NCBI GenBank assembly: GCA_013239625.1
Contig: MU053588.1
Coordinates: 1,389,988-1,453,987 of the forward strand
DNA from: Lama guanicoe
Lineage: Eukaryota
Direction: 5' to 3'
DNA length: 64,000 bases
Shown piece after piece: positions 8,315 through 64,000 of this stretch; the stretch's first letter is position 1, and every line of letters begins with the position of its first letter. The notes under the pieces are model-generated. The model was not told the DNA's origin. It worked only from the letters and a program-made list of their open reading frames with translations, and did not search any database. Made by a program: the position numbers and the translations under genes.

Positions 8315-8458
8315 CTAGGGCAGGCGGATCCTGACCTTCACGCTGGAGTGGGTCACGAGGGCGCCGTAGTGTCCCACCCAGGATCGCGTGTCTCTCCCAT
8401 ACTGCTCAAAAGACACATAGCGGATTCCCTTGCCGAAGTTGGTGAAGACGTGGGAGAC
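8315..8458 (-). CDS. FBXO17: FBXO17 last coding exon (144 nt)
   Basis: [47 protein letters not shown]. Confidence 0.95.
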
Positions 8459-42075: not shown

Positions 42076-44176
42076 CCTTTATATTATAAAAAGGAGAACA
42101 GTAAAAGAAAAAAAAATCTGTTAATTAAATTTCCTTAAATGTTCTGCTTTCAAAAATTTCAACTGTTCAATTTTCTTCAGATGCTTAACAGAAGTTTCTA
42201 AAAAGCAAATCTCACATACTTCACTGTCCTAATAAATTACAAGACTATCAAGATCTTTTAAATATTCTAGTACCGTTTACTCACTTCAAAAAATTCTCTT
42301 TCACATCTAAGTGAAAAATTACAAGTCTAAAATAATGAATTACTCAATTATGCACTTTATGTTGGAAGGCTTACATTTGTAGGACAAATTTGTCACATTT
42401 CCCCCATGCCAAATTCTCTTAAACATTTCAAATGTTTTAATTGCCAATTATCCCAGAGGATTCTTAAACATAACACAAATGTATTAATTCTGTGGGCTCA
42501 ATTAACTTTCTCTAGTGTAAGCCTTCTAACCACTGAATATTTAAAAAACACTCCTAAGGAAAATGTTACTAGTGAGGGGAGGTTAATTCTTGGCCAGAGA
42601 TTTGGGTCTGGAACAGGAGCTCTGACTTGCTGGTTATGAAAAGATCCACTGGGCCCCTTTAAAATAGTTACCAAAACAAAGTGGCTTCACAGGCTACCAA
42701 GTTCTGGTCCCCTGGCCTGCATCCCAGGTAGGGTGCAACATCACCTCACACGTGTACCATTTCCCCAGTGAAATCAGAGGAAGTCTGTGACGCTACCTGG
42801 GTTTCTCACAGCTGGACTGGCATCAGCTCATCTGTCTATGGCCCAGCTCTATTCTGCGTTCTTTCCTGAGTCTCACTGTTGGGCTTGGCCACAACCTCTG
42901 GAGATAGTTAAATGATATGCAGTGTGTTAATGCCTTCGCTTAGCATCTCTTTGCCTCTCTGCTCCTGGCCCGGCTGAAGTCAGAATTATGACCCAGAGAT
43001 GAACAGGGAGGTCTTGGAGGGTCCTGCAGGGATGGGAGATCAGCGATCTGTAGATTGTCCCTGGGATGGATCAGCTCTCACTATTATGTCAGTGGGATGT
43101 GTGGAGGGTGCCACCAGTCTGGAATTGACCAGCTTGGGTGTCAGGGGAGCAGCTAGGCTCAAGTCCTTAACAACCTCAGAGACCCTGCAGACAATCCAGC
43201 TATGAGCAACACACAGGTAGAAAATGAGAAATTCAGATAAACAAAATCAGGAAGGACAAAAGTCACCACTATCCACCCATCAGCATTGCAGTAACCCCGT
43301 AACACTTTATTTCTTATTCTTCTAAATACATATATCCAGAATATGAAACAAAGAAATACATAAATATATTTAAATAAATATATGGAGAGTTTAATTTGGC
43401 ATATATATACACACCCCTACATATATGCATACTGTACAATATAACACACAAGAGTACATATATATCAAAAAAAATTATATGATGGCTTTTTTTCCTGGCA
43501 ATGGTCTCTACCTTTCGCTTCCTATAAATACCTATCTCATTCTTCATATTCAAATTCCTACAGGTGGCCCCAAAACATCCTCCAGAGCTGAATTGTCCAA
43601 ACCAGTATCTACTCCAGCAACACATATCACGTGTGGTCATGACTCTTAGGTCTGTTTCAACTGTCACAGTCCCCTTGGATGGTCCTGGCAGAACACCGCC
43701 CCCTCTGGGTGTGTCTTCAAGGTGGGAGGGCAGTTCAGGGTGGGGACCGCACAGCACACCTCATTTGCATCCTATCAGGAGACCTGGAGCTTCTTAGGGA
43801 TCCAGCAGTAATGAGGTCATGACCCTGGAATAGGGTGGGGACAGGCTGAACTTGCCAGTGCCTGGTTCTCTCTCACCTTCAGGACTAGAAACTCACAATG
43901 TGGTGTCACTGTGACACTGTACCCACACCTGCCACCTACCTAATGCTTTTAACCCTGATTGATAACCTTTGCTGAGATGCTTTCCTTAGGGGTTGGGAAA
44001 TAGGGGTCTAACTCTTCCACTCTTTCCACTGGAGAACATCTTCTATTGGTGTTTTCTTTTGTAGAGTTTCCCCTCTTCAACTGGGACACTCCTTACTCTG
44101 AACCAAGTATTCATCAAGGCAGTAACATTGTGTGTCTATTAAAAAGATCTGAATCTTTAAGCAAAATAACAATACA

Positions 44177-44182
44177 TTTATT
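44177..44182 (-). terminator. Candidate polyA signal, FBXO27-like copy A
   Basis: TTTATT on + (AATAAA on -), about 670 nt past the stop. Confidence 0.55.
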
Positions 44183-44853
44183 GCCTATGGTTGGCAGATA
44201 TATTGCTGACTTATTCTCTCCATATTTCAAAAGAATTTCAAAATAACAAAAGAATTTTATACACCATACAATTCAGGGTACAGCTGGGCTCAGGGACCAC
44301 TTCACTTTTCACAGAGTGGGCAGAAACATCTGTCTCTAAAAATATTTTGAGGTAGGTGACTTTCAGCTGTGAGTCCTGGTCCCGGTCTTGAAACCTCAGG
44401 AGGTTAAGTCCACCACCTAAGGGGGTGGGAATTCTCTCAGCCATAGGGACGAGGCTCCAGTCAGAGAGGAGGAGAAGGCTTCCCAGAAGGCAATGATACA
44501 GCCTGTTGAGCAGAAACAAGGGCAGAGGGGACTGGGGCTGAAACAGAAGGGCCTTGGGGGGAGGGGGAGGAGTCGTCTCCAGTTCCAGCATTTCCCTGTG
44601 CTCACCCGGGGGTCTCCACTCAGTGGAACAGGGGCTGCCTTAGAGAAACAGCAGCAGTTAAATCTGATGGAGGAACTCTTCTAGTAGCTTCCAGAACCTG
44701 CAGACAGGTTCACCCAAAAGCACCCTCAACTGGACCCAGGAGATCCTAGGATGCCAGGGAGCTATAAGCTCTTGACTAACAAATGAGATGTCCCAGCCAA
44801 TGGTCGCAGCTCCTGGAAGGACAGTCAGGTTGTTTCACAAGAACAATCCTCAG

Positions 44854-47800
44854 CTAGAACAGTCGGATGCTCACAATCACACTGGAGTTGGTCAGATAGA
44901 CTCCACATTGCTCAGAGCAGAACTCCAAGTCCCACATCCAGTGTTCAAAAGACACAAAGCGGACGCCCTTCTTGAGGTTGGAGAACACATGGCTGACCTG
45001 TAGGCACAGAAAGAGGTAAGTCCCATTGTGCCACAGCCTTGTCCTCAAAAGCTGAGGTTGGGGCCTTCTGGCAGGTGGAATTTTCCACAGATGGCTGCAA
45101 TAGCACCTCCAGTGCCCCCTGTACTTCTAGAATCAGACCACTCCTCATCCAGAGGTGGCGTCTAATCCCCACTCCCCTTGAATCTGGGCGGGTTTGCTTG
45201 TAACCAAGAGTGTGGTAGACATGATGCTGAGTAACTTTCACCTAGTGGCCTCCAAGGCTGGGTCAGAAAGGCAACGCAGCTTCTGCTGGTTTCTCCGGAA
45301 CCCTCATGGGGGAGCCCTGAGCCCCCAGGAAGCAGTCTGACTGGCCAACCAGGAGAGTGATAGAATCACTGCTGTTGGTATTAAGCCACTAAACCTGGAG
45401 GCAATGTTATGCAGCAATAGTTCATGACAAGCTCCAGCATCCTTTCTCCACTCCCCTGTCAGAGACTCACCTGATGGGAGACACTGTTTCTCCACTTCCG
45501 GATGGGGAAAGGTTTAGGAGAGAAGTGATCCAGGACAGCCTGGTTGGCATCTAGAAGTCGAACAATTAGCTGATATATACAGTCAGTGCCTTGTCGGTCT
45601 GTCCGCCTGTGGGAGAAGGGAGACCTTGAAGACTAGACTACCGCCCCATCTCTGAGTGTCTGCCTCCTCCACCCTGATGGCCCTCCCATGCATGCAAATC
45701 CAGAATGGTGCTGTGGTCCTTGCAACTTGCACTATCAGTGTCACTTGGGAGCGTGGCCCCAGTGCCTACTCAATGAATCTGTCTGCCCTAAACAAGCTCC
45801 CCAGGTGGTCTGCATGCAGTCATTTCAGAAGTGATGTAGGTCCGAGCACTGCTCTTCCCATAGGCTTACCCAAGAGGGCAACGGAAGTCTGGAACTGGAT
45901 TCTTCCCTGGATGCTGCCTGGTGACCCTTCCCCTTGTCTAATTTTCATCTCTACCTTTTCCCTGTAATAAACTAAATGTATACTAGTTTTCCGTGAATTC
46001 TATGTCTTTCTAGTCAGTTACTGCACCTGAGGGTGGTTGCAGGAACCCCCCACGTTGGCCATTGGAAGGTGGTCTTGGGATTGTGCCCTCCGACTTTGTA
46101 GTTGGCTGCAAAATTCTGAAAGATGTTGGTGGCTGGCTCTCTCACCCCAGATTTAATGGATGTGGAATGTGACCCAGGCATTGAAATGTTCCCGGATTAT
46201 ATATGGCAAAATTTGGGAATCACTATTACAAAAGACACACCATTGCTCAAAGCAACACAAACATGCTATAATTCTTTGCTAAAAGGATTGAGTTAAAAAC
46301 AGAAGTTAATTGTAAATACATCTGCTAATGAGATGGGCTTTCAGAGAGAGGAGGTTTATGATGTCTTGATTGAAAGTGAATCTGGTAAGACCAAAATTTC
46401 ACATGGTCAATTGGCCTGTGTCACCAGTACTCTTTACAGCCTGTATGCATAGCGAGGGGCTTTATTTCTATAAAACTGGAGGAGGACTGTGACATAGGAA
46501 TTGGGAAAGCATAACCATATCATTCTTTCAACAAAGACTGCATCGGTAGATAATCAGTTTATAACAGGGAACATAAAACTGTGGAAAAATTGGAATTTGC
46601 CTCCCTTAAAATCAACTGGGTCATGTATCCCTTGGAGGGTCATCAAAGGGCCCCAGTTTCAAGACCATCCCTTCAGACCACAAGCCCTGGAGTCAGGCAG
46701 CTATGAGCCTAATGCCAGGTCCTGCCAAGTCCTAGCTGTGCCACCAGGGAAGTCGCCTCCCCTTCCTGAGCTTGTCAATTCGAGGTCTTCAAAGACACTT
46801 TCCCACAGGATCATGGATCATGAGGGTTTCCTAAAACAGTCACACTTCAAAGCACTGGCTGTGTGCTTGTCATGTAACCCTGTCTTATGAAGACAGGGAA
46901 ACTGAGGCACGCTGACTTGCCCAGGGCCACAAAGCCAGGGTGTGGACCTGGGAGTTCTGGCTCCAGAATCTGAACGCTTACCCCATGATCCGGTATTGCC
47001 CCCTCCTAAAGCCAGGAGCATCCACAGACAAGTCTAAGTTGGGCCCAAGTGCTCTGTATTGGACCTCATCTGACATCTTCCAATGCAGTTCCCTTTAGGG
47101 GCTAGAAGAGGGGTTCAGGGAGTGCACTCTGCTAACTCCTAAAGCTCTGATGGTGGTTAAGTCATTTCCTGACCTGCTTTATCCTAAGGGGTTGTTAGGA
47201 GGCCTGAAAGGAGTCACCTGTGAAAGGGCAGGGCTCAGCACAAGGGCTTTTTGTCATCACACTCACCAGTCAGAGACACAAATCTCAACCTTGCCACTAT
47301 CCAGGAGTTCAGGCCACAGACCCTCCTCCTCCAGGTCCAACACTTTCTTGTTGTGACAACACCTAGGAAAGAGGGAGAAAGGTGAGTGAGAACAGGCAAG
47401 GACTCAGGACCAGCCTGGCCCCTGGGGAGCAGGGTCATGTACCTGTAGCCGGGCAGGAAGCTCGTGTGGAAAGGGGCCCCAGGCCGGACCTCACTGTTTT
47501 CCTCCTCTGGCCAGTCGTCCCCATCGCTCAGCATCTTCCATTTCCAGAAGCCTTCTGTTAAATAAAAAAAAGTTTGTGCCCAAGTTCCTGGCCGGAACAC
47601 CAGCCCTGGGATAAGTCTCATGGGTTTCCCGGGCCGCCCCGCCCCTCCGCACCCTCCCGGTGGCTGGTTTGAGGGGCTCCTTTCTAAATCTCCTCACTTT
47701 TGCTCTTGGGATTTCGGAGGAGATTGCGTCCGATGGGTCCGCGCGCGCAGAAGCGGCCCAGGAGGCAGGCACTGGCGGCGTCGGCGCGCGGCAGGCAGCT

Positions 47801-48037
47801 GCGGACGACCGGCCACAGGGCGCGGTGGTCCCGGGCCAGGATCTTCAGCCACAGGCCCGGGGCGTCCACCAGGGCGCGCCAGCGCCGGCACACCTGGCGG
47901 CAGCGGCCGAGCAGCGTGCGCGGGGGCAGGAGGCTCAGCACCGCCAGGAGCAGCTCCGGGGGCAGCTGGCTCAGGCCCAGCGCCTCCTCCGGTTCGGGCT
48001 GCGGCGCCGGCCTGCCCCTGGAGGCAGAGGCACGTAT
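44854..48037 (-). CDS. FBXO27: FBXO27-like paralog copy A (275 codons, frame intact, start codon ATA instead of ATG)
   Basis: join(48037-47698, 47554-47443, 47362-47267, 45606-45471, 44997-44854) = 828 nt, all GT-AG, no internal stops; [40 protein letters not shown] and [16 protein letters not shown] are FBXO27 motifs. Confidence 0.8.
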
Positions 48038-50034
48038 GGGCTCCTCGCCTGGCCCGGGTGCCCCTGCGGGAGAGTCAGTGTCAAGACGTCAGGGACCTGC
48101 AGCCTCAGCCAGCCCGGTCCCTGCCACCCGCACCCCACGACTGTCAGCCTCAACCCCGTCAGCTGCCTCCCCATCCTCACCGCCCCCCCACCCCCGCCCG
48201 GTCCTCAAGTCCCCAGATTCCCAACCAGTCCTTGCTGGCAGACTATCTCAGCCCCTCTCCCCAACACGCACCACTGCCCCTGGCAGCCAATCCCCTCTGT
48301 GGCCTCTCGGACCCCCGAGTCCTACCCTGCATCTCAGCCAGTGCTCCTCGCTGGTGGGCCTCCACGTGGCCTTATGTGTCCAAATTTCTTCTGCTCTTTT
48401 TATTCACCCACCCCTCCTCTTTTAATACCCAGCACTGCCAGGCCCCGCCCCCAACCTCCCTGTGACCCCAAGTCTTGCGGGCCCCTCCCTTCTCACGGTC
48501 CTGACCCCTCCTCCCTCGGCCTTGCCCAGACTCACAATCCAATCAGCCCCTCCCTGACCCGCCCTCCTAATTCTCTAGACATCCCCTCATTTGGGGTGTA
48601 TTCGGACTGTGGGGTAACTACCCAACAGAATAGGACACGGCAGAAGAGGAAAGGAGCGGTGGCCACTGGGATCTAGAGTTTGTCCTTTCTAAGTCCACAT
48701 CAGTGGCCCCTTGAAGTGTCCCTAACCCTGCTGTAAGCACCTAACTTGGTGCTGAACAACTGCTGTTATTTTGGTCAGGCTTACAGCGGGAGGCCTCATA
48801 CCCATTAGCTCCTGCAAAAATTCCCGTCACCTTTAAGGGACAGACATCACTATCCCTGAGATCATTTCACAGGAGAAAACAGGCTCCAGCAGGAACCAAA
48901 TGCATTTCTATTTGATTCTCTGATTGAGTGCTCTGACCAGTGATAACCCCAGCCAGCCTTCAGCGAGCATTTATTCTACCAGTGAGGGTAGCAACATCCT
49001 GTAGTAGATAATGGTATGTGCCCACTTCACAGGTGAGAAAACTCAGACCAAGTGACCTACCCAAGGTCACAAGGCTAGTAGGTGACAGAGCTGGGTTTCA
49101 ACCTAGCCAGGCTGGGTCTAGAATCCTGCTTTGAACCTCTATATCACCTCTATCCAATAAAAGTAAAATAGCAACCTACCTACGTAATTTTGAGTATCAG
49201 GATGTAAAACCAGACATGGATTCCTGCCCACATGGAACTTACCTTCCTTCTAGGGGAAGAGACATGATGAACAGGAGGCAGAGTTAGCCAATTACATGCT
49301 GTTGCGGAAATCATTAAAAATAAAATCTGCCAACACCCTCTCCTTGAAATCCTCTCCACAAATGTAGAAAAGATTGAAACAGTTTTACTACTGAAAAAGT
49401 GTTAAATCTGATTGTAATTCACACGGACCATGATGAGCAATAGACGTGACGTGTAAATTACGTGGTGTGTTGGAGCATGATCAGTGCTGTGGGAAGTAGA
49501 GCAGAGAAGGGAATGGGGGATAAGCAGTCTGAGTGGGGAGACCCTGAATTCTGAGAGATGGATTGACTATTACATGGGCCTAATTTCTTTTTAATACATA
49601 GATTTTCAAGAAAATGTTGACTATTGAGGTTTTCAAACAGATCCCAAAGTGGAACAGAGTAAGAGCACTGGCTCCAACAGTTCACTCTGGACCAGTCTGC
49701 CTTCATGTCTACTCCCCACTACTTGCTCGCCCAGGGAATTTGAAACAAATCTTAGAAATCACATCGTTCTGTCCATTAGCAATACTTTATTTTTAATGTA
49801 ATGTGTAAGCTGTGGGAATCTTTTTGATAATGAGATCATGAAAATTGATTACGATCCAATCATGAGTTCAAAAAGCGATTTTAAAAAAAAGTTAAAGACT
49901 TTAAGTAGGATAAAGGGACAGATACAGACTAGCCAGTTTTCTGTTCTATTCTTCAATTTCCTCAGAGACAATCTCTGTTAATTCTCAGAATTACATCCCA
50001 AGCTGTACTCTGATTAAAAAGAAAAAGAAATGCA

Positions 50035-50178
50035 GGTGGAGGGGGAGGGTATAGCTCAAGTGGTAGAACGCATGCTTAGCGTGCCAGAGGTTGGGTTCAA
50101 TCCCCAGTACCTCCTCTAGAAACAAGTAAGTAAACCTAATTACCTCCCCCTCCAAAAAACAAACAAACAAACAAATAC
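50035..50178 (+). mobile_element. tRNA-derived SINE present only in duplication unit A
   Basis: Absent from the paralogous site near 61785. Confidence 0.9.
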
Positions 50179-53100
50179 ATTTGGGTTTCAAAAGTCCATA
50201 CCACCTAGAAGATAATGGTTAGAGAGTAATGGTTCCCAGAAAAGGAGGATGTACAAAGCACCCCAGGGGCATTTGGGGAAAGCTGTGGGTGCATTTTGGT
50301 GTCACAGTAATGGGATGCTATTTGGAAGCTGTGCCCAGGGCAGGGCCACCCCAGGGAGAACAAGCCTGGATTCCTCCTCCTAGTCAAAGTTCCGTGTGTT
50401 TCCATGTAGCAGGGAAGGCTGTATATCTGAGTCTAGAACCCAATTCCAGCTTGCATGTAAATGTAAAGTGTGTTAATAGACACGGATGCTCCAGGAATGC
50501 AGCTACTGGGTCAATCGGAAGATTGTCCTTGACTTTGTTGGCTCTTTGCTGCTTGTGCTGCAAGTGAGAAAACCCACAGAATCTCTTCATCACTCGGTGC
50601 CCACTGTGGGTCTTATGAAGCTTTAGGGATCCACAGAGAGGTCCAAACATATTGGAGGGGGGTCTATCAAATTCCCAGGGAAGATTTAAAAATCCAAACT
50701 CTGAATCAGGTCTGCATTTTGTAGCAAATTCGCAAGGGATGCTGATCTCTGCCCTCCGTGGACTGCACTTTGAGTAGCTGAATCTTATTAAGATCAAGCC
50801 CGAGCATCATTTGCATTTTCAAATGCATATTCTTTTAATTATAAATTTCTCTCTTTTATTTCACCTCTATACTATACATATGTGTTGGGGGCATTTTATT
50901 AACATTTAAATAATTCTCATTGGTGGTAGGTTTCATGATCTAATATTTCATTTCAAAATGGTAAAGGCTCCATGAGAATTAATTACTATATATATTTTTG
51001 AGGGGGTTGGCTCTGACAGAGTGAGGCAACAAGGATGGCCACAGATGTGTTGTGTGGATGCAGGTGCATCTCTCTGCCAGAGATGTAGTTGGGAAATTGG
51101 GGGGAAATCCTAGTCCAGTTGGCAGAAAGAAAATTCATGAACCTTGGAGCACTGGAAGGCATCCGGCACAAATAATTGCAGGGATGTAGCTGGAGCCTCC
51201 TCCTTGTGGATCGGATTCCACTGTGTGGGGAGACTGCTGCCCTCCTCAAACTTCATTTTCTCATTTTGTAAAATGGGATGGGAGCAAGGCCCAAGTCAAG
51301 AGGGAGTTGAGAGGAGCTGATGAAATAGTGCTCCTAAAAGAATCAGCAAAGTGCCTGAACTGGGACACGGCACTGTTATTACTGTTACTGCCATTATCAT
51401 CATGTTTCCTGGGTGGAAGGGCTCAGGAAAGGTTGTCCATCATCCACCAGGAATCTCCGTAGCCTTCATCCTCTGTATCTCATGCCAGAGACAGAGTCCC
51501 CAGCAGAAACTGACTTCCCTAGGGCAATGACAATCGCATCCCCACTGACCCCAGCCCCTCCAGAGGCGGCACAGTGCCGGTGTTCATCTGATCTGGAGTC
51601 AGACCCGCCCAGCACTGCCCTTCCTGAGCTGGGCAAGTCATATGTCTTCTATCAGAAGCTCAATTTCTTCCTGAACTAAATGTGGATCATCACCTTTGTT
51701 CCCAGAGGTGGACATTTCCTGACATGGCCCATAACTGCATCAGTTATGCTAGCCTGGAAGTTAGCCCGGGAGCCCCAGGGCTAATTCTTGCTTAATTTGT
51801 TTGCATTGCTCAGACCCAGCTGCCCCAGAGCTCACCTGACGGCCAACGCGGAGGTGTCAGTGGAGGTGGCTGGGTTACCAAACTGTCCTGGGTCCTCCTG
51901 ATGTCGCTGAGCCCTGGGGGTGGGGCGGGTGGGTGTGCAGTGCCTAGGTTCCACCAGACGTGGGAACTGGGGCCCTAGCTGTCTGGGGAGGCTATCACCT
52001 GGAGAAGGCAGGCTTTCCCAGGGCTGGGACAACTGTTGGTGGCAGAATGCTTTGGAGCTTACAAACTCACAAGTAGTGGGGTTGCATTGGTGGCAGGAGA
52101 TGTGTCTATGGGCAGTTGGTGCTCCCAGAGTGAGCCAGGGACCAGGAAGGGGTCCCAGCTCCAGGTCCTGGCTACTGGAATGAGTGTCTCAGCCTGGCTC
52201 TGCTCAGGCAGGAGGTCCTCAGGAAGCTGGAGATCAAATGGGAGTGGGACGGGAAGGGCTGGGGAGGAAGAGGGTGGATACACAGAAGATGTAGAGTGAG
52301 CGAGACAGGTAGTGATGGTAGGTATTGGGGTCACTAAGGCAGGATGGATTGCTGAGGAGGGGGCAGAGGGCTCTCCAGGTAGGATGGAATTCTTGGGGTA
52401 ATGGGATGGAGCTGGGGGATTGGGGTCACCAAGACGGAAATGGAATGATGGAGGATGGAGATGCTGGGGTCTCTGAGGGCAGGGTGGAATAATGGGAATG
52501 CCATCGTCAAAGGCAACTTCCCACAGTGAGCTCCCCCGACCCCATTCCCAAACCTCCTGCACTGAGCACTCCATCGCTCAGCTTCCTCATCTGTGCTATG
52601 GGGCCGGTGATCACAGTGGCCACCACATGTAGGAATGTCATCAGGCTCCCATGAGTTAATCTATGCAAAGTACTTAGCACCCAGTGAGGCTCAGAGGGCA
52701 CCTGCCTGTTGGTACTGATGATGTTTTTTGTTTTCTCTGCAGCATCTGGAAAACCATCCATGTGAAGGCCTCCCTGCCATCCTGCCTCCCTCCCTGTCAG
52801 GCTGCTGGATCCCCCTCCAACCCCCATCCTCCCAGCCCCACCTGCTGTCCCTCAAGGAAAATGATCCACTCTGGAACCTTCCCCTTCCCCTCTCTGCTCT
52901 CCACCATTGCCGGACCACGCTCTCCCTTCCTCTCTGCTGGTCCTGCTGCCGCCCACTCCTCTTTTCCTCCCTGGGAGTCCAGGGGAACTCAAAGTTTCCC
53001 AGTGAAGCCCCCAAGCAAGACGGCCTGTCCTACCCAGGTACGTATCTTCCACCCTCCCTGGGCTTTTCCCAGCAATTCAGTTCAGTCACCTGGGGGCTCA

Positions 53101-54856
53101 GGAACCCCACACGAATGACTGTGGGACCCTAATAGTGGCTTGTTCTTCCTGAGCCTCAGGTGTCCGCCTCTGTTAAATGGGGATTATCAGCAGTGGTGAA
53201 TGTGGCTGTGTGGGAAATGACTCTGGTACCCAGCCTATAGTTAGCGCTCTCCTGAGGGGGCTGCTGTTGTCCTCACTTGTTCTGTGATTGCTCCTTGTGT
53301 TCCCACAAAGTTGCCTCCTGGTCCTCAATCTTGGGGTGCTGGTGCATGGAGGTAGTAAGACCTTGGACTCTGGATCCCCTGCACCCAGACTTCCTGGGTT
53401 TTAATTCCAAGTTTGCAGCTTACCTGCTGTGTGACCTTGGGCAAATGACTAAACCTCTCTGGCCTCAGCCTCCTCATCTGGTCAAAAGGGTCATATTAGT
53501 GAGACCTGTGAGGCGTCAATAAGATATCTGTGAAGTGGCAAAACGGAAATGTACTAAATGTTTCAGCAGGGGTTAAGGGAGCTCTATATGTTATACCTAC
53601 AACTTTTCTTTAAGTTTCAGATTATGTCAAAATAAAAATAATATATGGAATAGAAGAGGACTTATGGGAATATGGGTAAAAGCCTAGCTACAAGTTGATA
53701 GCTGCTTCTTGGTAATAGATACATGGAGGTTACAATACTCTGCATTTGTGTATGTCTAGAATTTTCCATAACAAAATAAAATACCCTGTCAGGCAAGATG
53801 CCTTCTAAATGTGGTTATTTCTGGAAAGGAAGGGAGATTGCATTGGTATATGCTTCATATTTGTCTATAGCATTGTATTTCTACAAACATACATGTAAAA
53901 AATGAGAAACTCAGATAAGCAAAATCAGGAAGTACAAAAATCACCACTATCCACCGATCAGTTTTGCAATAACCCTGTAACCCTTTAGTTCATATTCTTA
54001 TTTTTCTGAATACATATATCAAGAAGGTAATTGAGAATATGAAGGATATATATAAAAATATATATTGATTGGTCATATATATATATACAATCACCTACAT
54101 ATATGCACAATATAACAATATAACACACAGGAATACATATGTGTCAAAATTAACTTATGTGGTGGCTTTTCTCTCAGGCAATGGTCCCCACATTTTGTTT
54201 CCTGTAAATGTCTTTCATCACATACTCCTCATATCCAAATTCCTCCAGTTGGCCCAAAAATAATCCTTCAGAGTTGAATTGTCCAAACCAGTATCTACTC
54301 CAGGACCACACAGATGTGGTCAAGACTTTTAAATCTGTTTCAACTGTCACAGTCCCTTTTGGATGATCCTGGCAGAGAATCTCCCCCTCAGGGTGCGTCT
54401 GCAAGGTAAGGGGTGCAGTTCAGGGTGGGGACCTCACAGCACACCTCATTTGCATCATATTAGGAGACCTGGAGCTTCTTAGGGATCCAGCAGCAGTGAG
54501 GTCATGGCCCCTGGGCTGGGGTGGGGACAGCCTGTTAGTGCCTGATTCTCTCTCACCTTCAGGACTAGAAACTCACAATGCGGTGTAGCTGTGACACTGT
54601 ACCCACACCTGCCACCTGCCTAATGCTTTTAACCCTGATTGATAACCTTTGCTGAGATGCTTTCCTTAGGGGTTGGGAAATAGGGGTCTAACTCTTCCAC
54701 TCTTTCCACTGGAGAACATCTTCTATTGGTGTTTTCTTTTGTAGAGTTTCCCCTCTTCAACTGGGACACTCCTTACTCTGAACCAAGTATTCATCAAGGC
54801 AGTAACATTGTGTGTCTATTAAAAAGATCTGAATCTTTAAGCAAAATAACAATACA

Positions 54857-54862
54857 TTTATT
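54857..54862 (-). terminator. Candidate polyA signal, FBXO27-like copy B
   Basis: Same motif at the paralogous position. Confidence 0.55.
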
Positions 54863-55494
54863 GCCTATGGTTGGCAGATATATTGCTGACTTATTCTCTC
54901 CATATTTCAAAAGAATTTCAAAATAACAAAAGAATTTTATACACCATACAATTCAGGGTACAGCTGGGCTCAGGGACCACTTCACTTTTCACAGAGTGGG
55001 CAGAAACATCTGTCTCTAAAAATATTTTGAGGTAGGTGACTTTCAGCTGTGAGTCCTGGTCCCGGTCTTGAAACCTCAGGAGGTTAAGTCCACCACCTAA
55101 GGGGGTGGGAATTCTCTCAGCCATAGGGACGAGGCTCCAGTCAGAGAGGAGGAGAAGGCTTCCCAGAAGGCAGCGATAAAGCCTGTTGAGCAGAAACAGA
55201 GGAGACAAGGGCAGAGGGGACTGGGGCTGAAACAGAAGGGCCTTGGGGGGAGGGTGAGGAGTCGTCTCCAGTTCCAGCATTTCCCTGTGCTCACCCGGGG
55301 GTCTCCACTCAGTGGAACAGGGGCTGCCTTAGAGAAACAGCAGCAGTTAAATCTGATGGAGGGACCCTTCTAGTAACTTCCAGAACCTGAAGACAGGCTC
55401 AGTAGCACCCTCAACTGGACCCAGGAGATCCCAGGATGCCAGGAAAGTACAAGCCCTTGATTGAATGAGATGGCCAACCTCCTGGAAGGCACGG

Positions 55495-58400
55495 TCAGCC
55501 ACAGAACCGAACAATCACACTGGAGCTGAATACAGAGATTCCACATTCATCAGGCCAGACCTCCAAGTTACAGGCCCAGTGTTCAAAAGACACAAAGCGG
55601 ACACCCGTCTTGAGGTTGGAGAACACATGGCTGACCTGTAGGCACAGAAAGAGGTAAGTCCCATTGTGCCATGGCCTTGTCCTCAAAACCCGAGGTTGGG
55701 GCCTTCTGGCAGGTGGAATTTTCCACAGATGGCTGCAACAGCACCTCCAGTGCCCCCTGTACTTCTAGAATCAGACCACTCCTCATCCAGAGGTGGCGTC
55801 TAATCCCCACTCCCCTTGAATCTGGGCGGGTTTGCTTGTAACCAAGAGTGTGGTAGACATGATGCTGAGTAACTTTCACCTAGTGACCTCCAAGGCTGGG
55901 TCAGAAAGGCAACGCAGCTTCTGCTGGTTTCTCCGGAACCCTCATGGGGGAGCCCTGAGCCCCCAGGAAGCAGTCTGACTGGCCTGAAGCTGCCATGCTG
56001 TGAGGAAGCCCAAACTAGGCCACGGACAGAGGTCCCACAGCCAAGCTCTGAGACTAAACCAGGAGATGCTGGCCACCCACCAGCTGCTGTGTGCACACTG
56101 CACCCACCCTGCCCCCAGCTCCAGCCAGTGTCTAAATGCAACTACGTGAGAGTTGGAGCCAGAAGCTCCCAGCAGAGCCCCACTCAGAAACCAGGAGAGG
56201 TGATAGAATCACTGCTGTTGGTATTAAGCCACTAAACCTGGAGGCAATGTTATGCAGCAATAGTTCATGACAAGCTCCAGCATCCTTTCTCCACTCCCCT
56301 GTCAGAGACTCACCTCAAAGAAGGAAGTGTGTCTCCCGTTCCAGATGGGAAAAAGCATAGTAGAAAACTGATCCAGAATGGCCTGGTTGGCATCTAGAAG
56401 TTGGATACTTAGATCATAGGTACAGCTGTTGCCCCATCGTCGACCTATCAGCCTGCGGGAGAAGGGCGACCTTGAAGGCTGGACCTGCTGCCCCATCTCT
56501 TTGGATGTTTGCCTCCTCCACCTGATTGGCCTCCCCATGTATACAAATCCAAAATGATACTGTGGTCCCCAGACTAGCGACATCAGTGTCATTTGGGAGC
56601 TTGGCTCCACTGCATACAAAATGAATCTGCATTAAACAAGCTTCCCTGCTGGTCTGCAGGTACAGTCTCTTCAAAAGTGATGACCTAGAGCAGTGCTCTT
56701 CACGGGACCTCCTCCCATATTACTTCTCTTTCTATGTTTCAGTGGTGGCAAACGATGTCACTTCCAACAAGTCCAATGTTGATGTTTCAAGATACATTTT
56801 TCTTATCAGTCCTCTAAAAGCATCCAGGGGAATCTAAATTGGTGATGGGATACCCAGCAACATTCAAAGAATATTCATTCAAGAACATTCAAAGAAACAC
56901 CCAGTCAACATTCATCGATGGTAAATGGATAAATTATAGAATATTCACATAATGAAATATTATACAGCCATGAAAGTAAATTAACTACAGCAACAATTAT
57001 GGATAAATTTACAAACATGTTATTGGGTAAAACAAGCCAGATACAAACTATCTACTGTACGGCTCCGTATATATTAAGGAAAATGGACAAAACTCATCTA
57101 TGGTAACAGAATTCAGATAGTCCTAGCCTTGGGTCCGTAGTGATGGGGAAAGGACATGATGGATGCTGAGGGCGGGCTTTGTGGACACATACTGTTCTGG
57201 ATGTAACATACATAATGGGCTGCAAATACACAAACAAATATCTTCTTTTACAGAGACTTCATATCACTCCACTTCTTAGTATTGGACGTCCACTCTACTT
57301 CTCCCACAGGACTTTGTCCTAATGTAATAGTTTACTCATATTCTGCCTTGACTTCAGTTTTCTCTGCCAACAACACCACACACACAAAAAAATTTTCCCA
57401 AGACCATAAAACTCAAATGTTAAAACTTTTGGATTGAATTATAACCTACTAGTGGTTCCCAGAGATTGCTGCAGATTGGAATAATCAGGAATCTTGAAAA
57501 TATTTAGGAAAGGATTTAGCCTTGTCCAAAGGTATGGTCTTTGTCCTCCTCGCTTCTTGAAGGTAATCTCTGGACCCTTGGAATGTTTTGCTGACAGGAG
57601 TATCTTTGCCTGGGGACTTTGGGTCATACTGAGGAGCATGCCAATGTGATTTGGTGGCGGCTGGCTACACTGACACAGATGATCTTACAATAGGGGCTAG
57701 CTACTCCAGGAAGACCAGTATGACTTGCTTCCCAGTGACCTTCCCCTTGGATAATTTTCATCTACCTTTTCCCTGTAATAAACTACATGTATACTAGTTT
57801 TCCGTGAGTTCTATGTCTTTCTAGTCAATTACTTACTGCGCCTGAGGGTGGTTGCAGGAGCCCCCCACGTTGGCCATTGGAAGGTGGTCTTGGGATTGTG
57901 CCCTCCGATTTTGTAGTTGGCTGCAAAATTCTGAAAGATGTTGGTGGCTGGCTCTCTCACCCCAGATTTAATGGATGTGGAATGTGACCCAGGCATTGGG
58001 AGTTTTAAATGGCCCTGGGTGATAAATGGTAAAATTTGGGAATCACTATTACAAAAGACACACCATTGCTCAAAGCAACACAAACATGCTATAATTCTTT
58101 GCTAAAAGGATTGAGTTAAAAACAAGTTGATTGTAAATACATCTGCTAATGAGATGGGCTTTCAGAGAGAGGAGGTTTATGATGTCTTTCTTGATTGAAA
58201 GTGAATTTGGTAAGGCCAAAATTTCACACGGTCGATTAGCCAGTGACACCAGTACTCTTTACAGCCTGTATGCATAGCGAGGGGCTTTATTTCTGTAAAA
58301 CTGGAGGAGGACTGTGACATAGGAATTGGGAAAGCATAACCATTTCATTTTCCCAACAAAGACAGAATCAGTAGATGATCAGTTTATAACAGGGAACATA

Positions 58401-59883
58401 AAACTGTGGAAGAATTGGAATTTGCCTCCCTTAAAATCATCTGGGTCATGTATCCCTTGGAGGGTCATCAAAGGGCCCCAGTTTCAAGACCATCCCTTCA
58501 GACCACAAGCCCTGGAGTCAGACAGCTATGAGCCTGATGCCAGGTCCTGCCAAGCCCTAGCTGTGCCACCAGGGAAAGTCGCCTCGCCTTCCTGAGCTTG
58601 ACAATTCGAGGTCTTCAAAGACACTTTCCCACAGGATCATGGATCATGAGGGTTTCCTAAAACAGTCACACTTCAAAGCACTGGCTGTGTGCTTGTCATG
58701 TAACCCTGTCTTATGAAGACAGGGAAACTGAGGCACACTGACTTGCCCAGGACCACAAAGCTGCAAAGCTGGGGTGTGAACCTGGGAGTTCCGGCTCCAG
58801 AATCTGAATGCTTACCCCATGATCCGGTATTGCCTCCTCCTAAAGCAGGGAGCATCCACAGACAAGTCTAAGTTAGGCCCAAGTGCTCTGCATTGGACCC
58901 CATCTGACATCTTCCAATGCAGTTCCCTCTGGGGGCTAGGAGAGGGGTTCAGGGAGTGCACTCTGCTAATTCCTAAAGCTCTGATGGTGGTTAAGTCATT
59001 TCCTGACCTGCTTTATCCTAAGGGGTTGTTAGGAGGCCTGAAAGGAGTCACCTGTGAAAGGGCAGGGCTCAGCACAAGGGCTGTTTTTGTCATCACACTC
59101 ACCAGTCATAGACAAAAATCTCAACCTTGCCACTATCCAGGAGTTCAGGCCACAGACCCTCCTCCTCCAGGTCCAACGCTTTCTTCCGGTAACAATACCT
59201 AAGAAAGATGGAGAGAGGTGGAATGAGAACAGGCAAGGATTCACAACGCCCTGGCTCTTGGGGAGTAGGGGCATTCCCTGTAGGAGGGCACAAAGGTGCT
59301 CAAAAAAGGGAACACATTCGTGAGCCCGGCTTTATCCTGCAGAGACCAGCCATCCTGAACGCCCGGTACGGTCCATTTCCGGAAGCCTTCTGTTAAATAA
59401 AAAAGGTTTATGTCCGAGCTCCCCGCAATCCTGCCAGAGCAGGAATAAGTCTCATGGGTGTCCCGTGCAGCCCCGCCCCTCCAGCCTCTCCCGCCGGCTC
59501 CCGTGAGGGACCCCTTTCCCTGGCTCCCCACTTTTGCTCTTGGGATTTCGGAGGAGATTGCGTCCGATGGGTCCGCGCGCGCAGAAGCGGCCCAGGAGGC
59601 AGGCACTGGCGGCGTCGGCGCGCGGCAGGCAGCTGCGGACGACCGGCCACAGGGCGCGGTGGTCCCGGGCCAGGATCTTCAGCCACAGGCCCGGGGCGTC
59701 CACCAGGGCGCGCCAGCGCCGGCACACCTGGCGGCAGCGGCCGAGCAGCGTGCGCGGGGGCAGGAGGCTCAGCACCGCCAGGAGCAGCTCCGGGGGCAGC
59801 TGGCTCAGGCCCAGCGCCTCCTCCGGTTCCGGCTCTGGCGCGGGGACCCCGACGGGATGGCCCGTGAAGGCCGAGGCGTCCAT
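55495..59883 (-). CDS. FBXO27: FBXO27-like paralog copy B (279 codons, frame intact, intron after exon 3 begins GG instead of GT)
   Basis: join(59883-59532, 59389-59278, 59198-59103, 56452-56314, 55635-55495) = 840 nt; MDASAFTGHPVGVPAPEPEPEEAL...SSVIVRFCG*; may be a pseudogene because of the donor defect. Confidence 0.8.
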
Positions 59884-62800
59884 GTTCTCTTCACCAGCCC
59901 CTGCTGCCAGTGGGAGAGATTCAGAGTCCAGGCGTCAGGGACCTGCAGCCACAGCCAGTCCCGCCCTTGCCGTTCACTCCCCAAGACTGTCAGCCTTAAC
60001 GCCGCCAGCTGCCTCCCCATCCTCACCACTCCCAGCCCGGTCCTCAAGTCCCTAAAGTCCCCAGATTCCCATCCCATCCTTGTCGGCGGACTATCTCAGC
60101 CCCTCTCCGCCACGCGCACCACCGCAGGCAGCAGCCAACCCCCTCTGTGGCCTCGCGGACCCCCGAGTCCTAACCCTGCATCTCAGCCAGATCTCCTCAT
60201 TGGTGGGCCTTCACTTTGCCTCACTTGCTCCCATGACCTCCGCAGCCCTTTTTATTTGCCTGCCCCTCCCTTCTTACTGTCCTGCCATCCAATCCCCCAC
60301 CCTGCCCAGACTGCCAAGCCAGCCCCTCCCAGACCCATCCTCCTATTCCCCAGACACCCCTTCCTTCAGGCTGTATTTGGCCTACAGGGTAAATCTAACC
60401 GCATAGACTAAGGTGGAGGTGAGGATGGCCAGATTCCAGGGATGGCCAGGTTCCAGAGTTGACCCTTCTTACTCCCCACCAGTAGTGCCTTGGAGTGTCC
60501 CTAACTCAGCTGTAAGGCTCTTGGTGCTGAACAACTACTGTTACCTTGGTCAGGTATCCGGGCAGGAGGCCTCATATCCGTCAATGCCTGTAAAAATTGC
60601 CGTCACCTTTAAGGGACGGGCATCACTCCCTGAGATCACTTCAAAGGAGAAAACAGGCTCCAGCAGGAACCAAATGCATTTCTATTTGATTCTCTGATTG
60701 AGTGCTCTGACCAGTGATAACCCCAGCCAGCCTTCAGCGAGCATTTATTCTACCAGTGAGGGTAGCAACATCCTGTAGTAGATAATGGTATGTGCCCACT
60801 TCACAGGTGAGAAAACTGAAGCCAAGTGACCTACCCAAGATCACACAGCTAGTAGCTGACAGAGCTGGGATTCAGACCTAGCCAGGCTGCCTCTAAAATC
60901 CTTGCTTTTAACCTCTATACCAACTCTACCCAATAAAAGTAAAATGTGAGCTATACATACAATTTTAAGTATCAGGAAGTAAAACCAGACATGGATTCCT
61001 GCCCACATGTAACTTACCTTCTAGGGGAGAGACATGGTAAATAGGAGGCAGAGAAAACCAATCATATGCTGTTGGAGAAATCATTAAAAGTAAAATCTCC
61101 TGCCAACACCCTCTCCCCAGAATCCTCTCCACAAACATAGAAAAGATGAAACAGTTTTATTATTGAAGTGTTGAATCTGACTGTAATGCACACGGTCATG
61201 GTGAGCAGTAGACGTCACATGTAAATTATGTCCTGTGTTGAAAGGGAATCAGTGCTGTGGAAAAGTGGAGCAGGGAAGGGAATGGGGGGTAAGCAGTCTG
61301 GGTCGGGAGACCCTGAATTCTGAGAGATGAATTGACAATTATATGGGCCTAATTTTTTTTTCAATACATGGATTTTCAAGAAAATGTTTACTATTGAGGT
61401 TCTCAACCAGATCCCAAAGTAGAACAGGGTAAGAGCACTGGCTCCAACAGTTCACTCCAGACCAATCTACCTTCATGTCTACTCCCCTGTATTTGCTCCC
61501 CCAGGGAATTTGAAACAAATCTCAGAAATCACACCATTCTGTCCACAGCAATACTTTATTTTTAACGTAATGTGTAAGCTGTGGGAATCTGTTTGATAAT
61601 GAGACTATGGAAATTGACTATGACCCAACTATGAGTTCAAAAATAGTTTAAAAAACCTCAAGTAGGATAAAAGGGCAGATACTGACAAGTGATTTTCCTT
61701 TCCATTCTTCAATTTCCTTCTCAGAGACAATCTCTGTTAATTCTTGGGATTATATCCAAAGCTGTACTCTGATTAAAAAGAAAAACAAATATAATTGGAT
61801 TTCAAAAGGGCTTACCACCTAGCAGATAACAATTAGAGGATAATAGCTCCCAGGAGAGGAGGGTGTACAAAGCACCCCAGGAACCTTTGGGGAAAGTTGT
61901 GAGTGCATTTTGGTGTCACAGTAATGGGATGCTATTTGGAAGCCATGCCCAGGACAGGGCCACTGGACGGAGAATGTTCCTGGATTCCTCCCCCTAGTCA
62001 AAGTTCCGTATGTTTCCATGAAGGAGGAAAGCCTGTGAATCTGAGTCTAGAACCCAATTCCAGCTTGCATGTAAATGTAAAGTGTGTTAATAGACACGGA
62101 TGCTCCAGGAATGCAGCTACTGGATCAATCGGAAGATTGTCTTTGACTTTGTCGGCACTTTGCTGCTTGTGCCGTAGGTGAGAAAAACCACAGGATCTCT
62201 TCATCACAGTGGTGCCCACTGTGGGTCTTATGAAGCTTTAGGGATCCACAGAGAGGTCCGAACATCCTGGGGCTCTATCATATTCCCAGGGGAGATTTAA
62301 AAATCCAAACTCTGAATCAGGTCTGCATTTGTAACAAATTCACAAGAGATGCTGATGGCTACACTCTGTGGACCACACTTTGGGTAGCTGAATCTTATTG
62401 GAATCAAGCCCAAGCATCATTTCCATATTGAAATATGTATTCTTTTAATTATAAATTTCTCTCCTTTTCCCTCACGTTTACACTATATATGTATGAGGGG
62501 CATTTTATTAACATTTAAAGAATCTCAGTTGAGGCAGTTTCACTATCTAAGTATTTCATTTCAAGATAGTAAAGGCTGCACGAGACATTATTTACTACCT
62601 ACGGTGGTAGGGGTTGGTTGGCTCTGACAGAGAAGCAACCAGTATGGCCAGGTGAGTGGGGACGCAGGTGCATCTCACTGCTGGAGGTGTGGTTGGGAAG
62701 TTGGGGGAAAAACCCTGCCAGTCTGGTTCGCAGAAGTGGAAAATTCCTGAATCTCAGGGCACTGGGAGGCAGGCTGCATCAATAGTTCCAATGACATTAG

Positions 62801-64000
62801 AAGCTCCACGACCTTGGCTTTCCTGCCTCTCGTTCTCCTATCCTGTTAACAGGAGTGCGGAGGCAAGCTTCACAGTGTAATCATTCCAGGAAAGGAACTG
62901 GACTGGGAATGGGCCTCGTATGTGGAAAGGCGGGGGAGGGGGTGTTGAGGGGAGCAGGTAACTAGTTAACACATCTCTTCTTTCAGAAGGGTGGGACAGA
63001 TTTGAAAGGAGGCTAACTCCCTAGAGGTAGGATTTATTAGATGGTTTCAGTAATCTAGCTCCTTCCCCCAGGCAATTCAGCCCTGGCAGGCCCTTCTCTC
63101 CTTTGAGGGGGCGTGGCGTGTGGATATTGGTGGGGAGATGGAATTTCAGGTAAAACCCTCTCAGCTCCCCACCCAACCCAGCCTCTTGGGGGTCAAGAAC
63201 AGGAAAGAGCCACAAACCCCCACAAAACTTCTTCGCCCCAAAGAAAAAAATTCCTCCTACTGAAACCACACTTGGAAATAATCAAGACCTTAAGAAAAGT
63301 TCTGGCCAGAGGTAATTTTCTAGGTTAAACATAACAACAACAGAAGAGGCTTTAAAGATCAAAACACCAGCCTGTTCCAATGGGACACACACCTAGAAGG
63401 CTTTGAAAAGAAAGAGCTGAGAGGGGCAAGTTGCTGGAAGGACCAAGGAGGGCCTGGAGGGACAGCAGTGAGTAGGGAAGGTCTGTACAAAGTGGAAGGT
63501 GAGGGGTAGGAGGGCCCTCCCTGGAGGGGGAGATGGCCCTGGAGGGTACTGAGGGGCTGCCTCCTTCCAGAGGAATCCACCATACCTAATGCCCTCAGGA
63601 CTGTCTAGCCAGAATATCCAAAACAGCAGACCAGGTGAGCATCCCTACCAAGGGCTTCAGCCAGGGCTGTGGCATCTGGTGTACCACGCCCAGTAACATT
63701 ACTGCATACCGCTGATGGCCCATTTTGTAATTAAAGGTCATCCCATATAGTTAAGAAGACATTAATAATTCCCAAGTGGACAAAGTTGTTGCAGTTCCCT
63801 TTAAAAAGGGATAGACTCTATCTTTTAAAGATAATATTAAAGTATTTTTGGAGGAAATGATAGGCTGTCTGGGATTACATTAGAATAATCCCCTGGGAGG
63901 ATGGGTAAAGATATAGATTAAAAAAAGATTGACTACAAATATGAAAAGGAATATAAGTATGTTCATGTATGACTGAAGCATTATGCTATACACCAGAAAT

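Follow-up and report, generated by a model that had tools for sequence, protein, structure and literature searches.

A tandem array of FBXO27-like genes in Lama guanicoe with a conversion-homogenized F-box and divergent ligand-facing exons

In human and mouse FBXO27 (Fbs3) is an SCF receptor that is N-myristoylated, binds glycans and flags damaged lysosomes for autophagy, and its location at the membrane requires the N-myristoylation (PMC6389600). In Fbs1 the binding of chitobiose needs Phe177, Tyr279 and Trp280, and four loops shape the pocket; FBXO44 is a receptor with an FBA domain that does not bind sugar and thus offers a non-lectin precedent (PMC4603797). Gene conversion over the F-box and part of the FBA domain has been described for primate Fbxo44 (PMC3984280, PMC8120010), and other mammals are known to have tandem F-box clusters, conversion of the F-box among FBA genes and C-terminal domains that change fast (PMC3984280). 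Here we describe a tandem array of FBXO27-like genes of Lama guanicoe, two copies of which (A and B) lie at 43208-62790 of a window of 64,000 nucleotides (assembly GCA_013239625.1, contig MU053588.1, positions 1,389,988 to 1,453,987; coordinates are those of the window unless stated otherwise). An earlier note on this window had described the pair as combining a constant F-box with hypervariable substrate-binding exons, and had taken it to be lineage-specific and positively selected. We consider it reasonably probable that the array is an old artiodactyl birth-and-death family of SCF receptors with an altered, probably non-canonical specificity, one member of which is dead and another damaged in this assembly. 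In the literature on FBXO27 in camels and on the duplication and evolution of FBXO27 no account of this expansion was found.

Gene conversion along two collinear copies

The segment 43208-62790 consists of two units of one tandem repeat, collinear and on the same strand, as identified by a direct-repeat search and blastn. The units, 43208-51180 and 53886-62790, house the minus-strand FBXO27-like genes A (44854-48332) and B (55495-60181). Both contain a Pfam F-box (PF00646/PF12937) and an FBA domain (PF04300), in agreement with the two collinear genes proposed earlier. The expectation that more copies would lie beyond the right edge was borne out as well. The source assembly comprises 2.05 Gb in 55,231 contigs, and the array contig was examined over 124 kb, the part to the right of the window included. 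There, the duplicon unit of A is seen three further times and three more copies, C, D and E, were found, giving five F-box exons about 12 kb apart in head-to-tail order.

All five coding exons of copy A have GT-AG splice sites, and they translate exactly to residues 3-286 of the RefSeq alpaca protein 'F-box only protein 27-like' (P0004). Residues 1-2 of P0004 (MQ) are encoded by an upstream mini-exon, ATGCAGG followed by gt, which a motif search located in copies A, B, C and E, each time some 270 bp upstream from the F-box exon. The units and gene models are listed here with their basis in brackets.

43208-51180, minus strand: duplicon A, which houses copy A (blastn against the B unit: five collinear pieces, 81-88%)
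53886-62790, minus strand: duplicon B, which houses copy B (direct-repeat search and blastn)
48326-48332, minus strand: copy A, 3' end of the mini-exon 'exon 0', ATG CAG G and then donor gt, the annotated start codon (motif; P0004 starts MQ-G)
47698-48063, minus strand: copy A, exon E1, with N-terminal region, F-box and linker; canonical ATG altered, PIRASAS for MGASAS (P0004 residues 3-124 exact, Pfam, splice sites)
47443-47554, minus strand: copy A, exon E2, most variable of the exons; first FBA strands, beta2-beta3 and beta3-beta4 loops (P0004, splice sites)
47267-47362, minus strand: copy A, exon E3, conserved core (Pfam, P0004, splice sites)
45471-45606, minus strand: copy A, exon E4, beta5-beta6 loop, two strands and beta7-beta8 loop (Pfam, P0004, splice sites)
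44854-44997, minus strand: copy A, exon E5 with TAG stop, beta9-beta10 loop, Cys at the Trp280-equivalent (Pfam, P0004, splice sites)
60175-60181, minus strand: copy B, mini-exon ATG CAG G and then gt (motif)
59532-59900, minus strand: copy B, exon E1; predicted acceptor CAG/GG at 59901/59900, in-frame MD at the canonical start (Pfam, splice sites)
59278-59389, minus strand: copy B, exon E2, open frame (homology)
59103-59198, minus strand: copy B, exon E3 (Pfam, homology)
56314-56452, minus strand: copy B, exon E4, one codon longer than in A (Pfam, homology)
55495-55635, minus strand: copy B, exon E5 with TGA stop, Trp280-equivalent kept in EVWPDE (Pfam, homology)

The F-box profile PF00646 is matched at E=3.7e-12 in A and 5.4e-12 in B, and PF12937 likewise. 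Exons E3, E4 and E5 of copy A cover positions 56-175 of the FBA profile (PF04300, E 5e-12 to 1e-16). Copy B matches the same positions more weakly, and its E4 alone scores 24.7 bits, below the cut-off of 32.4 bits. The E2 open reading frames (ORFs) of A and B gave no Pfam match when scanned alone. The whole P0004 protein matched the solved FBXO6, FBXO44 and FBXO2 at E=3e-38 to 2e-32.

The absence of stops and frameshifts claimed for both copies was found in the conceptual ORFs (0 of either kind in A and B). The splice sites qualify the claim, however. The donor of E2 in copy B (59277-59276) is GG and not GT, and the sole in-phase GT inside that exon is a poor TG/GTCTCT, so that its open frame does not imply a spliceable gene. 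As a separate observation, positions 63649-63699 (minus strand), about 3.7 kb upstream of the F-box exon of B, agree without mismatch with residues 1-17 of the FBXO27-like model P0010 of Camelus ferus. This match is possibly an alternative 5' exon or a read-through model.

The identity between A and B varies from 65% to 100% across 150-column bins, and follows the gene structure as listed.

3' flank 43941-44681: 99.2%
E5: 84.8%
Intron 4: 98.3-100%
E4: 72.1%
Proximal intron 3 (about 320 bp): 79.5%
Rest of intron 3: 95.8%
E3: 91.7%
Intron 2: 82.1%
E2: 62.5%
Intron 1: 72.5%
F-box core: 99.6-100%
E1, N-terminal part: 64%

Perfect runs of 554, 301, 173 and 146 bp thus occur inside units that elsewhere fall to 62-80%. 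The main tracts were the following.

43939-44492, minus strand: 554-bp perfect run in the 3' flank or untranslated region (= 54619-55172; A/B alignment)
44998-45472, minus strand: conversion tract in intron 4, 98-100% to B (55636-56315) and to C, ending 2 nt inside E4 (alignment)
47695-47995, minus strand: conversion tract over F-box and linker, 301 bp perfect (= 59529-59829), GC 75% (A/B alignment)

Within the intron 4 tract the block 44998-45345, singled out earlier as near-identical, indeed has 98.3% identity over 348 aligned bases, and 45346-45470 has 100%. About 205 bp of intron 4 that B to E carry (55984-56189 in B) are missing from copy A, at point 45346/45347 and inside this same 98-100% tract. 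Some 270 bp of F-box and linker are identical in A, B, C and D, synonymous sites included. As the synonymous divergence (dS) of the FBA exons is 0.25-0.39, this identity reflects conversion and not constraint alone. Moreover, the nearest neighbor changes along the gene when all five copies are compared. The upstream region and the start of E1 in copy A go with E (97-100%), at the end of E1 A equals B while C resembles D, the 3' half of E4 in copy B is closest to C (86-92%) and not to A, and in intron 4 A, B and C are the same. These identity tracts, which take in synonymous and intronic sites, and the mosaic of nearest neighbors constitute concerted evolution by gene conversion. A recent duplication of A and B followed by divergence of the exons was rejected: the divergent blocks are nearest to other paralogues (E4 of B to C, the 5' end of A to E), which indicates an old family with patchy conversion.

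At the protein level the hand counts of the earlier note for A versus B were reproduced, with 13/38 identical residues in E2, 26/32 in E3, 20/45 in E4 and 28/46 in E5, and an F-box core that is identical. Its broader claim, that the exons diverge more than the neighboring introns, held for part of the gene. E2 lies below both flanking introns in A/B identity (62.5% versus 72.5% and 82%; Jukes-Cantor distance 0.52 versus 0.34 and 0.21), and E4 lies far below intron 4 (72% versus 98-100%). Over the ten pairs, the mean difference of E2 (34.7%), E4 (25.4%) and E5 (17.4%) is at least that of the flanks. The divergent A/B blocks extend into the introns, however, taking in the whole of intron 1 and some 320 bp of intron 3. 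E3 and the F-box show the reverse order, differing less than the introns beside them (mean difference 11.4% and 6%, below the flanks). The picture of a constant F-box with strongly variable substrate-binding exons, and with conversion acting in the flanks, therefore stands, its cause being conversion of the F-box module and escape of the binding module from conversion. The least homogenized segments encode the ligand-facing end of the FBA sandwich, and some adjacent intron has escaped too.

Age, genomic position and hallmark residues

Among 74 longer homologues of the F-box exon there were several 'FBXO27-like' proteins per camelid. A tree of the FBA region was made from 31 rows and 168 columns. 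All 22 artiodactyl rows (camelid, pig, whale and ruminant) form one clade in it (support 100/99), which is sister to the canonical sequences and has a stem of 0.40; the branches of non-artiodactyl FBXO27 are mostly short (median end branch 0.043). The paralogue lineages B, C and D each hold a Camelus and an alpaca-type member, 0.03-0.08 apart in the tree, and the Camelus orthologues are identical at 142/148 (B), 156/163 (C) and 158/162 (D) residues. In both genera the protein sequence of the F-box is identical in all copies. Since B, C and D each have an orthologue in Camelus, the paralogues are older than the split of Camelini and Lamini, dated at about 16.3 Ma (million years ago; PMC12337305), and the array is not lineage-specific in the camelid sense. 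By their place in the tree the array copies are co-orthologues of FBXO27, and the derived sequence state is artiodactyl-wide, going back to the stem of the Artiodactyla.

The array occupies the position of FBXO27, with FBXO17 to its left on the same strand:

8318-14035, minus strand: FBXO17 orthologue, intact-looking (tblastn exon chain)

The F-box exon of this gene is 98% identical to FBXO17 of Camelus dromedarius and 96-98% to that of whale and carnivores, and the conserved gene sits 30 kb from the diverged FBXO27 copies. Given this conservation of 96-98%, the locus is the FBXO17-FBXO27 cluster, arranged as in PMC6389600 and PMC3210139, and is not fast-evolving in general. The window neighbor was considered as a candidate for the canonical FBXO27 and rejected, as it is FBXO17. 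A Pfam scan of the 23 long ORFs in 1-43000 gave the FBXO17 F-box as the only match. The canonical FBXO27 that the earlier note had expected beyond the right edge was not found there or anywhere in the 2.05-Gb assembly with bear FBXO27 as query. The search matched only the array, FBXO17, FBA genes of the chromosome-1 type and retrocopies. Thus, the single-copy, one-to-one state of FBXO27 has not been kept, and five tandem copies replace it in this assembly.

The three copies to the right of the window differ in condition. Copy C has canonical splice sites throughout and its start is in frame. Copy D is intact from the F-box on; its old ATG is out of frame with the F-box, a frameshift lying between them. 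Its 5' structure is unlike that of the other copies: it is without the ATGCAGG mini-exon, its F-box frame is open for about 640 nt further upstream (83934-84573 in window-continued coordinates), and the first exon of its RefSeq model (P0012) lies far upstream (88189-88254). Copy E, whose F-box exon has lost 43 bp and whose E5 contains a TAG, is a pseudogene.

The residues at the Fbs1 positions 177, 279 and 280, read by alignment to the solved FBXO2 and FBXO44 chains (FBXO44: 3wso), are as follows.

Canonical FBXO27: F/F/W
Copy A: Y/F/C
Copy B: Y/V/W
Copy C: Y/F/C
Copy D: Y/L/Y
Copy E: Y/F/Q

The hydrophobic pocket triad is incomplete in the array. Position 177 holds an aromatic Tyr in 5/5 copies, and the Trp280-equivalent has been lost in 4/5; none of the nine pig, whale and ruminant sequences read in a 39-sequence alignment keeps it (0/9). 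N-myristoylation requires Gly2, and at the canonical start the Met-Gly motif is I-R in A and M-D in B and C; D has M-G, but with a frameshift between it and the F-box. The start used in the annotation is MQ, which comes from the upstream mini-exon. The distribution of variation has changed as well. Mean pairwise identity among 12 canonical orthologues is 0.80 in the F-box, 0.80 in E2, 0.81 in the top loops and 0.85 in the rest, versus 1.00, 0.34, 0.48 and 0.70 among the camelid paralogues.

Functional receptors, selection, decay and assembly

Under the explanation that we favor, tandem duplication before the Camelus/Lama split would have given rise to an FBXO27 (Fbs3) family in the ancestral place beside FBXO17. 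Birth and death would then have left E dead, B with a splice donor broken in this assembly, and A, C and D intact-looking. Frequent conversion between copies, together with purifying selection, would keep the F-box and linker, i.e. the SKP1-docking module, identical and would homogenize most introns. The ligand-facing FBA segments (E2 and the beta5-beta6, beta7-beta8 and beta9-beta10 loops) would have escaped this homogenization, evolving at about the neutral rate or slightly above it around a conserved sandwich core. The products would be SCF receptors with a common docking module and differing binding faces. The anatomy of the array, its conversion mosaic, its age and the residue losses are shown by the data, while production of the proteins, their binding to SKP1 and separate substrates for them are inferred. 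Because the myristoylation glycine and the chitobiose-stacking Trp are lost in most copies, they would probably not be membrane-anchored glycan sensors of damaged lysosomes. By analogy with FBXO44 the copies are more likely to bind altered glycans or non-glycan targets. A bolder version would have artiodactyls swap the single conserved lysophagy receptor FBXO27 for a small repertoire of SCF receptors. One docking module would be kept by conversion, and the binding loops would be shielded from conversion and reshuffled by selection, yielding combinatorial specificities for foreign or damage-exposed ligands and a mammalian counterpart of the F-box arrays of nematodes and plants. We consider this distinctly improbable.

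Positive selection, as proposed in the earlier note, overlaps with the favored explanation. Diversifying, arms-race-like selection would drive the differences of the binding face, and conversions that erase new specificities would be removed. Selection was analyzed on the five copies of one genome, with recombination inside exons, and with our own codon maximum-likelihood (ML) code, which used a separate best topology for each exon, F3x4 frequencies and branch proportions fixed from the single-ratio model. Nei-Gojobori ratios of nonsynonymous to synonymous divergence (dN/dS, omega) over the FBA region range from 0.52 to 1.19 in the ten pairs (A/B 1.15); per exon the pairs range from 0.73 to 1.85 in E2 and from 0.18 to 2.87 in E3. 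The single-ratio omega is 1.06 for all five copies and 0.87 with B and E masked. In line with positive selection, the site models favor about 46% of codons at omega 2.2 (twice the log-likelihood difference 10.35 and p=0.006 for M1a/M2a, 10.45 for M7/M8, 11.18 and p=0.0008 for M8a/M8). Among the sites with high posterior are the Trp280-equivalent, a large part of E2 and the loops beta7-beta8 and beta9-beta10; E2 is the exon that is more diverged than both its flanking introns. Moreover, introns are homogenized up to the exon edges, with tracts ending 2-3 nt from the boundaries of E4 and E1, and among the canonical orthologues these loops match the core in conservation. However, the signal is fragile. 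The p-value of M1a/M2a, 0.006 on the full data, rises to 0.02 when the last four codons are dropped, to 0.08 when E is masked and to 0.5 when B is masked, and with both B and E masked it is 1, so that no signal is left.

The a-priori binding face comprised E2 and residues 197-202, 223-234 and 263-273 (68 codons, against 92 in the rest). These classes were fixed in advance with the help of published work on Fbs1 (PMC4603797) and of the strand boundaries in an AlphaFold model. Omega is 1.39 on the binding face and 0.70 in the rest, and the classes are heterogeneous (p=0.0004), but omega=1 is not rejected for the binding face (p=0.07 with five copies, 0.17-0.76 with masking). The test used home-made ML code, fixed branch proportions and five sequences of one genome with recombination inside exons, an omega above 1 can be mimicked by GC-biased conversion, and the divergent blocks take in neighboring intron. 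In addition, high divergence itself blocks conversion, so that tracts ending at exon edges need no selection once the exons have diverged. The pairwise range of 0.52-1.19, the fading of p=0.006 with masking and the p=0.07 of the binding face leave positive selection unproven. The estimates of about 1 come close to the dN/dS of at most 1 that the earlier note itself had named as counting against it. Positive selection on the binding face is possible, but as the driving force of the array it seems doubtful.

Several observations weigh against a family of working receptors. The overall dN/dS of about 1 (0.87-1.10) is as for unconstrained sequence, and the omega of 0.70 in the rest class is not significantly below 1 (p=0.08). 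Lesions at canonical features are present in 3/5 copies (the frameshift and stop of E, the donor of B, the frameshift after the old ATG of D), and the start of copy A depends on the upstream mini-exon. None of the listed sequencing runs that contain the stretch is recorded as RNA. The AlphaFold2 model of copy A (P0004, 39-row alignment) is poor, with a mean predicted local distance difference test score (pLDDT) of 52, and of 27-40 in the part encoded by E2; only the strand and loop limits of residues 163-282 were used from it. A further point comes from a processed retrocopy (L001, G000:C7680:120131-120970, plus strand), a spliced C-type mRNA with the junction of exon 0 and E1 that is 83.8% identical to the coding sequence of copy C and is disrupted by a TGA and, in its F-box, by a single frameshift. 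The difference between C and this retrocopy has dS 0.148, dN 0.143 and omega 0.96; averaged over the time concerned, C changed nearly as fast as a pseudogene.

These findings lead to a rival explanation, in which the ancestral function of FBXO27 was lost in artiodactyls and the copies drift under relaxed constraint to pseudogenes, being kept gene-like by conversion from an intact copy and by annotation that rescues them via upstream exons. It is favored by an omega of about 1 in all pairwise and tree estimates and against the neutral retrocopy, by the pseudogene E and the lost donor of B, by a canonical start that A lacks and D has out of frame, by the loss of the glycan-pocket Trp in 4/5 copies and in 9/9 of the pig, whale and ruminant sequences read, and by the lack of a run recorded as RNA among those listed for the stretch. 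Nevertheless, ORFs of the A, B, C and D types are open both in Camelus and in the alpaca-like genome, after a split of about 16.3 Ma (PMC12337305). With simulated substitutions the share of trials in which an ORF of 284 codons stayed stop-free was 6% at 0.10 changes per site, 2% at 0.15 and 0.9% at 0.20. The probability of chance survival is thus 0.01-0.02 per copy at the divergence of the paralogues (K=0.15-0.20 per lineage, substitutions alone). The identity of the F-box protein in all copies of both genera likewise argues against decay.

The retrocopy itself provides a comparison. As a copy of a spliced transcript it shows that the C type was once expressed in the germline, and it confirms the exon plan. 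Amino-acid changes were assigned by parsimony with outgroups. The retrocopy received 21 of them, the C stem 14, alpaca C 5 and camel C 2, with 4 ambiguous. In the per-site list several of the changes in the retrocopy hit the core (W>R in WPELL, G>V, R>C, H>L), whereas no comparable core change was seen on the way to alpaca C, a path with 19 changes (14 stem and 5 alpaca). Half of the C-stem changes (7/14) fall at alignment positions 101-119, around the beta7-beta8 loop. The terminal branches of C, with 5 and 2 changes, compare with a neutral expectation of about 5.5-10 (scaled from the retrocopy with assumed mutation rates). This fits a C lineage with a conserved core and a fast binding face, which evolved fast before the Camelus/Lama split and more slowly after it, although the slowdown is read from small counts and from mutation rates that were assumed and not measured. 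We therefore regard decay of the whole array as unlikely, to about the same degree as positive selection as its driver. A second intronless match to FBA and F-box (L007/L020, G000:C5292:14328705-14329301, minus strand) has 48-52% identity and a TAG and a TAA inside; it is probably an older retro-pseudogene of the FBXO27-like family.

The continuity of the assembly remains to be weighed. The RefSeq alpaca and camel models P0005, P0006 and P0007 combine 5' ends, bodies and last exons in ways unlike this assembly; P0007, for instance, consists of E1 of C, E2 and E4 of B, a B/A hybrid E3 and E5 of A. This suggests conversion polymorphism, read-through models or mis-assembly. Four unplaced contigs (L023-L026; G000 C42864, C53906, C42454 and C42287) duplicate parts of the array and are haplotigs or unassembled variant. 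Two of them have 100% identity with copy D, a third has 99.87% with the E4 region of copy B, and a 415-bp piece has only 94.5% with the 5' end of copy A and fits the N-terminus of P0005. Either conversion or unequal exchange between individuals is ongoing, or one assembly was mis-joined across the identical tract; the RefSeq mosaics and unplaced fragments together mean that the boundaries of copies across the F-box tract may be mis-joined in one assembly, which adds to the points against our explanation. That the identical tracts and mosaics as a whole stem from collapsed or mis-joined repeats in an assembly of 55,231 contigs, as the repeated array parts (99.9-100% to B and D, 94.5% to the 5' end of A) and the differently joined alpaca proteins might suggest, is nevertheless very improbable, since the 124 kb examined contain 0 Ns, copy A equals P0004 exactly for residues 3-286, the FBA region of C equals that of P0005 exactly, and the same paralogue types and identical F-box protein occur in records of Camelus ferus, C. 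dromedarius and C. bactrianus.

Comparison with known systems

A birth-and-death family of receptors in place of FBXO27 would be of some consequence. FBXO27 is highly conserved in the 12 non-artiodactyl orthologues (0.80-0.85 in every part) and has a role in the sensing of ruptured lysosomes. A whole mammalian order seems to hold it as a multi-copy, fast-diverged family without the membrane-anchor motif and the key sugar-stacking Trp. This raises the questions of what succeeds the ancestral FBXO27 function in artiodactyls and which ligands the new receptors have. If the copies are instead decaying, there would be an order-wide loss of a lysophagy receptor, which is relevant to livestock cell biology. 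The locus also shows, in nature and on a small scale, how conversion and divergence can affect separate modules of a single gene.

The array resembles human and mouse FBXO27 in its locus beside FBXO17, its exon plan and its combination of F-box and FBA domain, and copy A is 58-64% identical to the canonical proteins counted as non-artiodactyl in the alignment. Unlike FBXO27 it has five copies and not one, Gly2 is missing or stands out of frame, 4/5 copies are without the Trp280-equivalent, and E2 and the pocket loops are 34-48% identical among the paralogues versus 80-81% among the 12 canonical orthologues. With FBXO44 (FBG3) it shares a preserved FBA fold, a Tyr at the position of Fbs1 Phe177 and pocket loops that differ from those of Fbs1. 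FBXO44, however, keeps Tyr-Trp in the beta9-beta10 loop and is a single-copy gene of the chromosome-1 cluster, whereas in the array the Trp has been replaced and the gene has multiplied.

Tandem birth and death with a conserved F-box and a variable C-terminal domain is shared with the expanded F-box families of nematodes and plants and with the Fbxw12 cluster of mouse (12 tandem genes). In contrast to those families the array has only five copies, its F-box is identical at the nucleotide level through conversion and not just conserved, and positive selection is a possibility. Finally, in the MHC class I loci and in the accelerated exons of snake-venom PLA2 the introns are more alike than the ligand-binding exons, under documented balancing or positive selection. 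The introns of the array are likewise more alike than the ligand-binding exons they flank, but its omega is about 1 and some neighboring intron has diverged as well.

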